Of a stretch of 38,788 bases of DNA, positions 11,123 to 15,333 are shown in pieces. This DNA is from Alphaproteobacteria bacterium. GTDB lineage: Bacteria; Pseudomonadota; Alphaproteobacteria; Rs-D84. The stretch's first letter is position 1. Each line of letters opens with the position of its first letter. The DNA is taken from positions 1 to 38,788 of the forward strand of contig JAFOVN010000022.1 in the NCBI GenBank assembly GCA_017392345.1. Reading direction: 5' to 3'. The position numbers and the translations under genes are program-made. The notes beneath the pieces are model-generated. The model saw only the letters and a list, made by a program, of their open reading frames with translations. It was not told the origin of the DNA and did not search any database.

Positions 11123-12196
11123 TTATTCTTCCATCACACTTTCGTCCGCATCGTCCGACGGACCGGTCGTCATTTCTTCGGCAATACCACCCGCACGCGC
11201 CATAATTTTATCCAACAATTCTTGTTGCGCTTCTGGATGATCTTTTAGCCATTGGCGCGCATTCGCTTCGCCTTGGCCTATGCGTTCATTATTGTACGAA
11301 TAAAAACTGCCCGCCTTGTCGATAAAGTCATATTTCACACCCATATCCAAGATTTCACTTATCCGCGAAATTCCTTCGCCATACATAATCTTGAAATCAA
11401 CAGTGCGGAAAGGCGGCGCAACTTTATTTTTCACAACCTTGACCCGCGTTTCGTTTCCGATGACATTTTCCTTGTCTTTGATTGCGCCCGTGCGCCGAAT
11501 ATCAAGTCGCACCGAAGCATAGAATTTCAACGCATTACCACCACTGGTTGTTTCAGGGTTTCCGAACATCACGCCAATCTTCATACGAATCTGATTGATA
11601 AAGATAAGCAAAGTATTACTGCGTGACACCGACCCCGCAAGTTTTTTGAGTGATTGACTCATAAGCCGTGCGGTTGTTCCAACAAAACTGTCACCAATGT
11701 TGCCCTCTAATTCCGCCTTGGGCACCAGTGCCGCAACCGAATCGATAACCACAACATCAACCGCGCCGGATTTAATAAGTGTATCCGCAATTTCCAATGC
11801 CTGTTCCCCCGAATCAGGTTGCGATATAATCAGGTTTGCAACATCCACACCCAACTTTTTCGCATAACTTGGGTCCAACGCATTTTCCGCATCGATATAC
11901 GCACACGTGCCACCCTTCTTTTGCGCTTCGGCCACCGCGTGCAGTGCAAGCGTTGTTTTACCACTGCTTTCCGGGCCATAGATTTCAACGATACGTCCGC
12001 GCGGATAACCGCCAATCCCAAGTGCGATATCAAGCCCCAGTGAGCCCGAAGAAATCGCCTCTATATTCTGTTGCGAACCATCGCCCATTTTCATAATTGC
12101 TTCTTTGCCGAATTGCTTTTGAATTTGTGCAAGTGCCGATTCAAGTGCCGGATTTTTCGCGCCCGTCGTGGCCGCCGCCGTTTCTTTCTTTGCCAT
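11123..12196 (-). CDS. recA: Recombinase RecA
   Basis: MAKKETAA...[16 protein letters not shown], Walker [27 protein letters not shown], and the L2 region [28 protein letters not shown]. The ATG at 12196 has AAGGAAG upstream, and the tracked N-terminal extension to 12274 was discarded. Confidence 0.96.
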
Positions 12197-12223
12197 AATA
12201 ACTTCCTTTGCTATACGCCCTGT

Positions 12224-12251
12224 ATGATACCGCAAAAAAAACACTATGCAA
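12224..12251 (-). promoter_or_regulatory. Candidate recA promoter
   Basis: On the minus strand: TTGCAT (12251-12246), 16-nt spacer, TATCAT (12229-12224), preceded by an A-rich tract. No SOS box was seen, either alpha-type GTTC-N7-GTTC or CTGT-N8-ACAG. Confidence 0.4.
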
Positions 12252-12267
12252 TTTATTTTTTTATTCC

Positions 12268-12542
12268 CCTTCACTGTGTGAAGGGGGGGACCGCGGCACC
12301 GCCGTGCGGTGACGTGGTGGGGTAGTTTCCTTCACTGTGTGAAGGGGGGGACCGCGGCACCGCCGTGCGGTGACGTGGTGGGGTAGTTTCCTTCACTGTG
12401 TGAAGGGGGGGACCGCCGAAAGGCGGTGGGGTAGTTTCCTTCGCTGTGTGAAGGGGGGGACCGCGGCACCGCCGTGCGGTGACGTGGTGGGGTAGTTTCC
12501 TTCACTGTGTGAAGGGGGGTGCCAACGGAACCGCCGGGGGGT
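12268..12542. repeat. Tandem array of about 4.7 copies of a 61-bp two-hairpin GC-rich unit
   Basis: Unit: CCTTCACTGTGTGAAGGGGGGGACCGCGGCACCGCCGTGCGGTGACGTGGTGGGGTAGTTT. Copies start at 12268, 12329, 12390, 12438 and 12499. Copies 1 and 2 are identical, copy 4 differs by one A>G, copy 3 is 48 bp with a replaced second hairpin, and copy 5 is degenerate. Confidence 0.95.
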
Positions 12543-12566
12543 ATATTTGTTCCGCACCAACACCAA

Positions 12567-12585
12567 GCCGGGGCAAAGCCCCGGC
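12567..12585 (-). terminator. GC hairpin 3' of the secreted-protein gene (REP module, possible terminator)
   Basis: GCCGGGGC-AAA-GCCCCGGC, a perfect 8-bp stem. On the minus strand it is followed by TTGGTGTT, which is only weakly U-rich. The same module recurs at 15155-15173 and 18868-18887. Confidence 0.45.
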
Positions 12586-12610
12586 GCACTTACACTAACA
12601 CTAATTTTCA

Positions 12611-13561
12611 TCAATCATCTGGAAAATCCCAAAGCCAACAATAATCCGGATCATTTTCATGCCCGGTTTCATACCCGGCACAGGTGCGTTTTTTCTGGCG
12701 GGTGTCAACGGCGGCAATGGTTGCGATATTTGCGCCGTTTTCCAATTCGCCGGTTGTCGCATTATGCGTTGGCGCGTTCGCGGTCGCAACCCCATTGCCC
12801 AGCGCGCCATTTGCGCCATAATTTGCAAGTGTGTTCGGCGTGCCGGTGGGCGCAGCATTTTGAATTTCATTATGCAACGCACTATACACATCTTTCAGCA
12901 GTTCCAATGACACCAACGCACCATTGATATAGTTTTGATTTGTTGTCGCGATACTACCGGTTGCACCAAAGTTTGATGTTTGATACTGCGCCAATGTTTT
13001 TGTCCCGTTGATATACAATATAACATTATCCGCGCCGGATTTTTTGGTAAGTGGTTGCGACCCACCCGCGGTGATATAACGACGTCCAACGCCCCCCCTG
13101 TATGTAGTCAAATCAATCGTTTCCCCACCCATGGATGCCATTTGGCTGATATCTGTTGTGCTTGTCCTTCTAACCGGCAGTGTGTCTTGTTTGTCGACTT
13201 TTAAGGACCACAAATTTTCTGCTACGGCACGGACAGTTGGAACAAAATTATCCATTTCGGAACCATAGCCACCTTCAGTACCATAATAATGCAAAATCCC
13301 CTCATCATCTAAAATTGTATCCTGATCCAAAATACCGATTTTATTGGCAACCAGGCCACTTGTAGAATCATATGTCGTAATCGCCGGCAACATAAGTTCA
13401 GGATTGCCATTAAACTCCACCAATCCTGTTTCGATAATATCCTGTTTCGTATCGACATAGGCCTTAGATGCCACGGTTTTCTTGTCCAATTCCGATGGTT
13501 CCGCAAATGACGGCATTGTAAACAATGTTGCAAATACAAATAACGCGATAAATTTTTTCAT
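12611..13561 (-). CDS. Secreted protein of unknown function (Sec signal peptide, C-terminal Cys pair)
   Basis: The ATG at 13561 has a GGGGGA SD. The signal peptide is MKKFIALFVFATLFTMPSFA/EP. The mature part is rich in Gly/Thr/Asn, contains ASKAYVDTKQD, and ends in CAGYETGHENDPDYCWLWDFPDD. I do not recognise a family. Confidence 0.7.
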   Translation of the reverse strand: MKKFIALFVFATLFTMPSFAEPSELDKKTVASKAYVDTKQDIIETGLVEFNGNPELMLPAITTYDSTSGLVANKIGILDQDTILDDEGILHYYGTEGGYGSEMDNFVPTVRAVAENLWSLKVDKQDTLPVRRTSTTDISQMASMGGETIDLTTYRGGVGRRYITAGGSQPLTKKSGADNVILYINGTKTLAQYQTSNFGATGSIATTNQNYINGALVSLELLKDVYSALHNEIQNAAPTGTPNTLANYGANGALGNGVATANAPTHNATTGELENGANIATIAAVDTRQKKRTCAGYETGHENDPDYCWLWDFPDD

Positions 13562-13672
13562 ATATTTTCCCCCTTTTTTATGTAACAAAAAACCACCGAA
13601 TTCACTTCAAGTGGTTGGAGGTTCAAGACTATGTTCCGAGAAAATAGTGGGTTTATTCTTTATATTCACCGC

Positions 13673-13820: not shown

Positions 13821-13845
13821 AAAAAACGGGCGCACCGCACCCGCC
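13821..13845 (-). terminator. Intrinsic terminator of the MFS transporter gene
   Basis: The minus strand reads GGCGGGTGCGGTGCGCCCGTTTTTT. This gives a 6-bp stem (with one G-U), a 5-nt loop and a T6 run, beginning about 22 nt after the stop. Confidence 0.55.
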
Positions 13846-13867
13846 ACTAACCAATGCTCACTAACAA

Positions 13868-15130: not shown

Positions 15131-15333
15131 CACCGCAAGCGGTGCCGAGACTGCGCTGTGGCTTTGCCCCAGCTTGGTGTTAGTGTAAGTCCGTCACGAC
15201 CGCGGCGCGGTCATGCCGCGACGGGTGGTTAGCAATCTCTAGAATAATTGCGTCATCCCGCACTTGATGCGGGATCTCGTGGTTTCATCCGTAACGGGGA
15301 GATCCCGCTTTACAGCGGGATGACACCACTCTG
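15131..15333. repeat. Mosaic cluster of palindromic REP-like modules
   Basis: Modules in order: CACCGC-AA-GCGGTG; GCTGTGGC-TTT-GCCCCAGC + TTGGTGTT (15155-15180); TTAGTGTAAGT + CCGTCACGACCGCGGCGCGGTCATGCCGCGACGGGTG (15180-15227); and two inverted GTCATCCCGC...GCGGGATCTC hairpins (15252-15278, 15299-15324). Confidence 0.85.

Follow-up and report, generated by a model that had tools for sequence, protein, structure and literature searches.

A tandem array of two-hairpin units upstream of recA is probably a local cluster of a dispersed palindromic repeat family in gut Alphaproteobacteria

Contig JAFOVN010000022.1 of assembly GCA_017392345.1 (Alphaproteobacteria bacterium, order Rs-D84) was analysed over its whole stretch of 38,788 nucleotides, here called the window. 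Immediately upstream of the recA promoter it carries a tandem array of two-hairpin units at 12268-12545. It is highly probable from our analysis that this array is no dedicated recA element: its units belong to a dispersed, non-coding family of palindromic repeats in the small genomes of 'Candidatus Enterousia'-type Alphaproteobacteria, which has built up a local tandem cluster here. Genomes of the order Rs-D84 are mostly below 1 Mb (PMC12306168). At the recA site strain comparison shows the array to be a strain-specific insertion between an upstream terminator-like hairpin and the conserved recA promoter. The family itself is a new variant of known interspersed repeats, namely the repetitive extragenic palindromes and bacterial interspersed mosaic elements (REP/BIME), the BoxC/PIT repeats and the Rickettsia palindromic elements (RPEs).

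The array comprises 4.7 head-to-tail units, each with two hairpins, which start at 12268, 12329, 12390, 12438 and 12499 and follow one another with periods of 61, 61, 48 and 61 nt. Tandem Repeats Finder reported a period of 61 at 12268-12416 (2.4 copies, 100% matches) and a period of 109 (61+48) at 12316-12519 (1.9 copies, 98% matches); together with direct reading this confirms the tandem two-hairpin layout given in a preliminary description of this DNA. On the + strand every unit runs from hairpin 1 (CCTTCAC-TGT-GTGAAGG) through a G run and hairpin 2 to the tail GGGGTAGTTT. Hairpin 2 stands on a 6-bp foot (ACC.../...GGT), and what closes it is either a loop of 3-4 nt or a nested palindrome. 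Hairpin 1 (CCTTCACTGTGTGAAGG) is found at all five unit starts, with one mismatch in the copy at 12438 (A>G at 12443), and is absent from the rest of the window; counted on both strands, it gives 9 matches compared with 0.01 expected by chance.

Unit 1 (12268-12328, 61 nt) comprises hairpin 1 at 12268-12284, a G7 run at 12283-12289, a long hairpin 2 at 12290-12318 with the nested palindrome CACCGC-CGTG-CGGTG within its foot, and the tail at 12319-12328. It is matched on the minus strand at 12260-12328 (59.7 bits, E = 5e-16) by a covariance model (R1), which was built from an alignment (A1) of 42 distinct units of the family. Unit 2 (12329-12389, 61 nt) has the same sequence, and its junction with unit 1 is present on an 81-nt contig of sequencing run X1. 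Unit 3 (12390-12437, 48 nt; minus-strand model match 12382-12437, 56 bits) carries at 12412-12427 the different, shorter and perfect hairpin 2 ACCGCC-GAAA-GGCGGT already read in the preliminary description. In unit 4 (12438-12498, 61 nt), recognised by sequence and by the model, the long hairpin 2 is combined with the mismatched hairpin 1 (CCTTCGC, with G at 12443). Unit 5 (12499-12545) is partial and chimeric: its hairpin 1 (12499-12515) is followed by a G6 run, a divergent hairpin 2 and the tail GGGGGGTATA, which resembles subfamily B. Its hairpin 2, CCAACGG-AA-CCGCCGG, is imperfect, the two A.C mismatches on the + strand being G.T on the other. The same distal piece occurs in L001 and L004, and perfect versions (CCGGCGG-AA-CCGCCGG followed by GGGGTATGGG) occur in L016. 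All five units are given in + strand orientation. At the promoter-proximal end, hairpin 1 has a full C4/G4 foot (CCCCTTCAC-TGT-GTGAAGGGG, 12266-12286, + strand), matches the hairpin-1 part of R1 and forms the outer end of the array, so that the element terminates with ...GAAGGGG(A) in recA orientation. The right junction, defined by comparison with the empty-site contigs L149-L151, lies directly before ATAAAAAAATAAATTGCAT. Folded as DNA, the + strand of the array reaches -81.2 kcal/mol (z = -10.5); as RNA, the minus strand has z = -6.0.

Units of this type are spread far beyond recA. The pattern ACTACCCCACC-N(5-30)-GGTCCCCCCC, in the reading direction of recA, was used to scan one genome per species. 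Of the 61 loci returned, about 14 come from three isolates of Parabacteroides (Bacteroidota) and one is a chance match; the others are spread over 19 alphaproteobacterial metagenome-assembled genomes (MAGs), with many contigs in each. The alphaproteobacterial lineages are named 'Candidatus Enterousia' or unclassified Alphaproteobacteria, and matches lie on 5 contigs of MAG RGIG2769 (RecA identical to that of the window), 6 of RGIG8185 and 6 of UBA3760. The genome-wide search that the preliminary description proposed thus finds the unit on many contigs of 19 genomes, so it is not specific to recA. Read on the G-rich strand, the basic module is (A/T)TCCCC-hairpin 1-GGGG(GGG)-hairpin 2-GGGG-TAG/TAT, with 17-21 nt in hairpin 1, 13-29 nt in hairpin 2 and about 30 constant nucleotides common across phyla. 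Modules were seen alone, in inverted pairs, in mixed clusters, in tandem, and in frame within a gene. In the window, R1 finds full units at the recA array only, plus a hairpin-1-type palindrome in mnmE; 340 kb of Enterousia-type loci gave 109 matches, many of them clustered in mixed orientation. Mixed clusters, or tandem arrays of other subfamilies, occur, for example, in L016, L048, L058 and L068 (tandem in L068 and L016). A looser pattern gave 110 matches in 575 kb of family loci, which had been selected for the element, and none in 366 kb of unrelated recA loci, a control drawn from a RecA-based scan of metagenome contigs of unrelated bacteria with RecAs of at most 70% identity. No match to the module was obtained in a scan of viral contigs, which gives no evidence for a phage vector.

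Modules are mostly intergenic, the exceptions lying in mnmE. Compared with their two flanking genes, which rest on crude gene calls, they were oriented same/same in 16 cases, opposite/opposite in 14, opposite/same in 9 and same/opposite in 5; orientation is unbiased and there is no transcriptional polarity. Unit 3 of the array fits the same picture. The preliminary description had taken it as a structure-preserving variant, and the fold is indeed kept while the sequence is swapped. The identical hairpin 2 (ACCGCC-TTTC-GGCGGT) recurs at the unrelated loci L019 and L045, however, and unit 3 is therefore another family member, not the product of a compensatory change in situ.

In mnmE the modules have entered coding sequence. 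The window's gene (21431-22789) carries an in-frame copy at 22349-22431 (+ strand), recognised by its translation and by a covariance-model match at 22353-22372. Here CCCCTTCGCTGGCGAAGGGG, which starts an insert of ~57 nt, is succeeded by another module and by a divergent stretch ending in ...GACGGGGTAGTG. The insert adds SSPSLAKGRSRAVAFREGGWRVAPDGVV (about 19 codons) between the G3 and G4 (NKSD) motifs. L003 has the empty-site allele for this insert and carries its own near the N-terminus of mnmE (L003:2687-4027, minus strand), LPFAGEGVRRGTPGGSGI, in which PFAGEG is encoded by CCC TTC GCC GGC GAA GGG; that insert is in turn missing from the window. MnmE accordingly measures 446, 452 or 465 aa, depending on the strain.

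The recA locus shows how variable the presence of modules is. The recA coding sequence (11123-12196, minus strand; 357 aa, Pfam RecA_N and RecA_C) is preceded by a candidate promoter at 12224-12251 (minus strand) with a -35 element TTGCAT (12246-12251), a 16-nt spacer and a -10 element TATCAT (12224-12229). A consensus promoter scan did not call these -35 and -10 elements; they are conserved in strains and species with and without the array. An unchanged RecA was found on 23 contigs read, out of 50 index blocks in which this protein is listed, all from ruminant gut metagenomes and including MAG RGIG2769 (GCA_017427405.1). At the recA site, L001 and L004 have one long-hairpin unit together with the proximal hairpin 1 and the distal chimeric piece, and L005 has a single long-hairpin unit. 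L003 has one unit with hairpin 2 ACCGGC-TTT-GCCGGT. The one unit of L002 belongs to another subfamily, with hairpin 1 CCTTTCC-GGT-GGAAAGG, hairpin 2 ACCACT-TTC-AGTGGT and the head CCCATACCCC. L149-L151, with RecA 100% identical, have no array: the end of a major facilitator superfamily (MFS) gene, ...ATG ATA AAA AAA TAA, directly abuts ATTGCAT of the -35 region. Sister species with RecA identities of 93-95% (L153, L154, L155/L156, L157, L158/L159) likewise have the order MFS-recA, with a spacer of 70-110 nt and no module, and L152 (RecA identity 96%) has a different upstream gene and degenerate units only. At least five states of the locus therefore exist among strains with identical RecA (96% for L152). 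The same site holds 0, about 1-2 or 4.7 units by strain, as read from short-read assemblies, which bears out the expectation in the preliminary description that copy number varies.

Since the array-less strains with identical RecA and the sister species all have the MFS gene abutting recA, the order MFS-promoter-recA is ancestral, and the secreted-protein gene upstream of the array as well as the repeat units are later, strain-specific additions. The A-rich stretch at 12252-12264 corresponds to the last MFS codons (IKK-stop) of the array-less strains and is a relic of the MFS gene end outside the element. The promoter is conserved in identical-RecA strains and sister species from which the array is absent, which rules out a required regulatory role at recA; the array is a dispensable, strain-variable insertion. 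We also observed that the whole MFS-recA spacer is a hotspot of variation.

The stems of the family covary strongly. Across both stems of the 42 units 98.3% of cells are paired, compared with 43-55% when the partners are slid by 1-3 columns. Changes on both sides of a stem number 72 cells versus 20.6 +/- 3.4 in shuffles, and none of 500 shuffles reached the observed value. Hairpin 2 occurs in at least 20 different stem variants. The two-hairpin architecture is thus kept in other copies with the stems swapped, as the preliminary description required of a real structure. One-sided changes of the G-U type are almost absent, and stem changes are almost exclusively of the Watson-Crick type; both DNA strands therefore keep perfect palindromes. 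Because the covariation is of Watson-Crick type, orientation is unbiased and copies sit in coding sequence, the pattern indicates that selection or generation acts on the DNA itself, as folded single strands or cruciforms, and not on an RNA from one strand.

We infer the following history. One or a few modules would have landed upstream of the recA promoter and then been amplified head-to-tail by slippage or unequal recombination between 61-nt units, while recombination may have exchanged different family members at the site. Both hairpins would have been retained since the element is recognised or propagated as folded DNA, and not for a job at recA. Less certainly, the modules may represent the termini, or else solo derivatives, of small cassettes carrying the gene of a DUF559 nuclease (Vsr-like, PD-(D/E)xK).

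Several points weigh against our interpretation. The constant parts of the scan pattern are fixed by construction, and invariance in alignment A1 is partly ascertainment; the foot of hairpin 1 and the GGGGA end are nevertheless conserved despite lying outside the pattern (after the C-run, TTC-N-GAA-GGGG-A(A/T)T, i.e. hairpin 1). Short-read assemblies collapse or break at arrays, so the copy numbers of other strains are lower bounds and the 4.7 copies of the window are unverified. The runs covering the region are short-read Logan contigs that all break within the array, the contigs of L006 and L007 terminate inside it, and both the copy number and the placement of unit 3 are given as assembled. 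No mobilising enzyme has been demonstrated and no target-site duplication defined at the modules; the mechanism of spread is deduced from distribution only. Finally, a secondary, exapted effect on recA expression or on the stability of the upstream mRNA is conceivable, and any such effect would be a side effect.

With less certainty, the conserved parts of the module may make up an intrastrand triplex set of the purine-motif kind. Read on the G-rich strand, hairpin 1 has as its foot the 7-bp homopyrimidine/homopurine duplex CCCCTTC/GAAGGGG. The tail GGGGTAG mirrors the purine arm of this foot, so that every G of the arm faces G and every A faces A or T, giving 7 triads. This is the class II purine-motif arrangement defined for the BoxC/PIT/TM_ECO repeats (PMC4666352). 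The rule linking foot and tail is kept in the subfamilies, where GGAAAGGGG goes with GGGGTATGG, AAGAAGGGG with GGGGTAGTT, GCGAAGGGG with GGGGTAGTG, and AGAGGGG with GGGGTGT. Allowed triads averaged 3.83, compared with 3.39 +/- 0.08 when tails were shuffled among modules, and at the two positions beyond the conserved core 1.07 compared with 0.74; none of 5000 shuffles reached either observed value, which gives no clean probability since the copies are related. The GTGAA subfamily of the window follows the rule over the 7 conserved positions only, and the internal array units have a CC foot, not CCCC. Within such a triplex the second loop would accommodate hairpin 2 as a self-contained hairpin. 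The preliminary description had suggested that the G7 and G4 runs could form G-quadruplexes. The canonical motif has four tracts of at least three G with loops of 1-7 nt, or of 1-12 nt in its relaxed form. Neither strand of 12201-12620 contains it even when loops of up to 20 nt are allowed, nor does the whole window with loops up to 12 nt; the quadruplex reading was rejected on this test, and the G runs fit the purine-motif triplex pattern better.

A Pfam search of the genes beside dense module clusters gave no transposase. It gave a 127-aa DUF559 protein (PF04480, E = 7e-33), and DUF559 homologues lie between modules in L016, L034, L011, L013, L030 and L057, that is in 6 of the 19 alphaproteobacterial genomes, compared with about 0.4 expected by chance from the ~18 kb examined per genome. 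In L034 and L057 the end of the locus cuts off one side, so modules are seen on one side. In Parabacteroides (L028) a DUF559 gene likewise lies between modules. The genes encode Vsr-like proteins of ~125 aa (L016:4388-4771, L011:3967-4341, L013:3629-4003, L030:4125-4508, L034:6-371, L028:4392-4688). At most of these loci a module in G orientation lies upstream, with its GGGGTAG tail toward the start codon, and a module in C orientation abuts or overlaps the 3' end of the gene. Hairpin 1 of the L030 cassette is the window's own (CCCCTTCACTGTGTGAAGGGG). Independent look-ups of DUF559 homologues found direct copies of a module pair flanking the gene in L161 and modules on both sides of it in another alphaproteobacterium (L166-L171). 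In Francisella (L162-L164) ATTCCCCTTCGATTGGAAGGGG-T-hairpin-GGGGTAGTTTGA lies 45 nt before the DUF559 ATG, and downstream there is only a degenerate hairpin. As a side observation, contigs below 2 kb are the only source of about 40% of the 120 best DUF559 homologues. This share is biased by the small size of the gene; it fits repeat-induced assembly breaks on both sides.

These data suggest a refinement of our explanation that we put forward tentatively, judging it possible and somewhat less probable than an even chance. The modules would be the cis-acting ends, together with solo and miniature derivatives, of a selfish cassette encoding a DUF559 (Vsr / EDxHD-like) nuclease. By recognising or nicking the module in its hairpin or triplex fold, this nuclease would drive the module's spread or local instability. 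The bracketed genes in the alphaproteobacterial genomes and in Parabacteroides argue for it, as do the flanking modules found by look-up. In Parabacteroides, a ~220-nt inverted module pair has its inner ends in common with the DUF559 cassette and looks like a gene-less miniature of it, related to it as a miniature to its parent. The DUF559 proteins have an invariant D...E-x-D-G-x-x-H signature, whose D, E-x-D and H are the putative catalytic residues; their closest solved structure is 3HRL, and DUF559 has been grouped with Vsr and the homing endonuclease I-Bth0305I (PMC3424549, PMC9403480). BoxC-type motifs also flank more distant DUF559 loci, from Synechocystis, Pseudanabaena, Deinococcus, Neisseria gonorrhoeae, Azospirillum, Sphingomonas, Sinorhizobium and E. 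coli. These 8 loci contain 14 perfect homopyrimidine/homopurine hairpins in 10.6 kb, compared with 6 in 366 kb of control loci, which were recA loci and not matched intergenic regions of the same genomes. The cassettes are ~0.5-kb inserts in operons, as in Sphingomonas (L176), where one lies between sufB and sufC. In E. coli K-12 (L180) the ycjD stop is followed, at a distance of 167 nt, by one of the genome's 23 TM_ECO copies (PMC4666352).

On the other side, all of this is association only, and DUF559 genes may merely occupy variable regions where repeats accumulate. A DUF559 gene was found neither in the window nor in the examined loci of its own species. The strict hairpin test missed E. 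coli and Azospirillum, where the hairpins have mismatches, and a look-up in Cloacimonadales (L165) was uninformative. Holder et al. reported no mobility genes near TM_ECO (PMC4666352), and in the searchable literature on DUF559, ycjD, BoxC and intrastrand triplexes we found no paper linking DUF559 to BoxC or two-hairpin repeats. A broader proposal, which we hold more loosely still, is that the module is a long-loop relative of the BoxC/PIT/TM repeats, and that such repeats are structured ends or orphaned solo copies of widespread, unrecognised DUF559 cassettes, of which ycjD would be one example. This lead rests on the mirror rule, the bracketed DUF559 genes and the BoxC-type motifs beside DUF559 in six phyla or classes. 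If true, it would join two orphans: the BoxC repeats, known since 1992 without an enzyme, would gain a candidate processing or mobilising nuclease, and the DUF559 domain would gain a candidate substrate. The function could be tested in E. coli K-12 by means of ycjD and its adjacent BoxC copy.

That the elements are instead canonical GTAG-type REPs in BIMEs, mobilised by a REP-associated tyrosine transposase (RAYT, TnpA_REP) of the Y1 class, seems unlikely to us. The resemblance is considerable, since the family consists of short GC-rich palindromes whose loops measure 3 nt, and complementary changes in the stems set its subfamilies apart. The unpaired GTAG at one end, the nested loop palindromes, the clusters and the tandem reiteration also recall GTAG REPs (PMC3733652), and inside the tandem array GTAG-TTT does precede hairpin 1. 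In single copies, however, GTAG comes after hairpin 2 (stem-GGG-GTAG-3'); REPs, by contrast, are 'preceded by' GTAG (PMC8266576). A search of ~520 kb of family loci with an approximate E. coli RayT query, a weak test, gave no Y1 transposase, and the genes flanked by the repeats are DUF559 and not tnpA_REP. Copies inside coding sequence and about 30 nucleotides held constant across phyla are also unlike the species-specific REP classes.

A role of the array as a cis-regulatory or RNA-level element of the locus has still less in its favour, and we regard it as very improbable. The preliminary description had considered a structured 3' untranslated region stabilising the upstream mRNA, a transcriptional insulator, or an operator or upstream element for recA. 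The array does sit precisely between a gene's 3' end and the -35 element of recA, its hairpins are stable, and REP-like elements elsewhere stabilise upstream mRNAs (PMC3733652). These suggestions are nevertheless unsupported, as the array is missing from strains with identical RecA and from sister species, in which the promoter is conserved, and as the unit is dispersed over many unrelated loci in both orientations, even inside a gene. The upstream gene, moreover, already has a separate terminator-like hairpin, the array hairpins lack a U-tract on either strand, and the different hairpin-1 sequence of L002, with its identical RecA, is contrary to a sequence-specific operator such as a LexA box. 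The last point, together with the array-less strains and the dispersal of the palindrome, led us to reject a LexA-box or operator reading of hairpin 1 (TTCAC-N3-GTGAA). An intrinsic terminator was rejected because a T-run follows the array hairpins on neither strand, and a CRISPR-like array because palindromes make up the variable parts as well and reappear at other loci. At gathering thresholds Rfam gave no match in the window, and permissive settings at 12150-12650 gave only chance-level hits (E >= 0.26); a search for tRNA and tmRNA genes found none. RNA runs yielded only sparse recA fragments of related strains and one library of ambiguous nature.

Least credible of all is an assembly artefact in the array or its copy number, for even if short-read contigs break in the repeat and the number of the identical units 1 and 2 is hard to resolve with 150-nt reads, at least one unit stands at the recA site in independent assemblies of several studies, a unit-to-unit junction was recovered from an independent run (the 81-nt Logan contig of X1, 12268-12348), related units are also tandem at other loci, and the array is real.

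The terminator-like hairpin (GCCGGGGC-TTT-GCCCCGGC followed by TTGGTGTTGG; 12567-12585, minus strand) follows closely on the stop codon of the upstream gene and separates this gene from the array. It is kept in L001, L002 and L004 and is missing in L005, although L005 has the upstream gene. This gene (12611-13588, minus strand) encodes a signal-peptide protein without a family in the Pfam search; it is present in the window, L001, L002 and L005 and absent from L003 and L149-L151, which have an identical RecA. Short runs of the heptamer GTTAGTG / GTAAGTG stand on both sides of it and at further sites (window 12593-12610, 13845-13865 and 18929-18935 on the minus strand; L003:9849-9862; the flanks of L063 and L068). 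They lie at most ~25 nt past the stop codons of several genes, on the coding strand, give stops in several frames and may be recombination points.

Other repeats were seen beside or inside the modules. A second dispersed palindrome family, (G)TCATCCCGS-loop-SCGGGATGA(C), occupies several intergenic regions of the window and of related loci, for example about 15250-15320 of the window (SecB-MFS spacer), the upstream region of L161 and the flanks of L019, L045 and L047. A small element of ~40 nt, ATCACCCAC...hairpin...GGGGCCCGAT, is nested in the loop of hairpin 1 at three loci (L030:4537-4632, L034:462-560, L067:969-1065), which suggests another repeat that targets hairpin loops. In L023, L049, L058 and L061 of MAG UBA3760, hairpin 1 is replaced right after the C-run by the same ~100-nt sequence, TTGTTTCGCTCGGGCTTGTCGCC..., a longer repeated unit; no transposase open reading frame was seen in L061.

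For annotation, our results mean that the array next to recA is selfish or neutral repeat DNA, for which the label of recA regulator should be avoided. The site that it marks is hypervariable and hard to assemble, and could be of use in typing strains of these uncultured gut bacteria. Our results also highlight that Rs-D84 genomes carry an active-looking mosaic repeat family that enters even essential genes, for which the known precedent is Rickettsia. RPEs are 95-150 bp long and confined to Rickettsia, and tandem arrays are not typical of them. Like the modules, they are dispersed palindromic repeats of a reduced alphaproteobacterial genome that lie between genes and in frame in genes (here mnmE), and a transposase is known for neither. 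The two are likened by description only, and unlike RPEs the modules form tandem arrays.

Among the other known systems, REP/BIME/REPIN elements with their RAYT (PMC3733652, PMC8266576, PMC2817692) come close. The definition of REPs as small GC-rich multicopy palindromes of 20-50 nt, mostly extragenic, describes the modules as well. Both form complementary subfamilies with a GTAG tag at one end, and both occur as singletons, as inverted dimers (the Parabacteroides pairs, with the tags inside), in clusters and in tandem reiteration with strain-variable copy number; the DUF559 locus, like a REPtron, is a small nuclease gene flanked by its own repeats. In contrast to the 5' GTAG of REPs (PMC8266576), the module tag lies 3' of hairpin 2 with GGG between, and GTAG stands before hairpin 1 only within tandem arrays. 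Further differences are the two hairpins with C and G runs, the in-frame copies, the constant parts across phyla and the associated gene, which encodes a DUF559 PD-(D/E)xK nuclease instead of a Y1 HUH transposase.

With BoxC/PIT/TM_ECO (Bergler 1992; Hoyne and Maher 2000; Holder et al. 2015, PMC4666352) the modules have in common the pyrimidine, purine and mirror blocks with class II triads, the intergenic position without strand bias, the strain-variable, rearranged loci, the lack of a nearby transposase and the adjoining DUF559 genes. As in a class II set, foot and tail of the module covary between subfamilies. The TM_ECO triplex has been seen in vitro, not in vivo (PMC4666352); for the modules a triplex is predicted from the sequence rule alone. 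The TM_ECO consensus, CCCTCNCCC-N3-6-GGGNGAGGG-N3-GGGNGAGGG, has short loops of N3-6 and N3 (PMC4666352), and its regular expression matches E. coli L180 and not the window units. Unlike BoxC (CCCTCNCCC... in E. coli), the module extends hairpin 1 by 2-3 mixed base pairs past the homopurine foot and has, instead of a 3-nt loop, a second loop made of GGG and a variable hairpin of 13-29 nt. The modules also form head-to-tail arrays and enter coding sequence. The modules thus depart from REPs in tag polarity and from BoxC in loop and consensus, and they obey the BoxC triplex rule.

Two further comparisons concern the organisation of the copies. The Parabacteroides ~220-nt pair, set against a DUF559 cassette with its gene deleted, recalls miniature inverted-repeat transposable elements and their parent insertion sequences as well as free-standing homing endonuclease genes. 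The cassettes have neither a target-site duplication nor a transposase domain, and their ends are ~55-nt structured modules rather than simple terminal inverted repeats. The array itself resembles the minisatellites known as mycobacterial interspersed repetitive unit-variable number tandem repeats (MIRU-VNTR) in its 48-61 nt unit, its head-to-tail order, its intergenic position and its strain-variable copy number; unlike these, its units are palindromic and also occur as inverted pairs and single copies.

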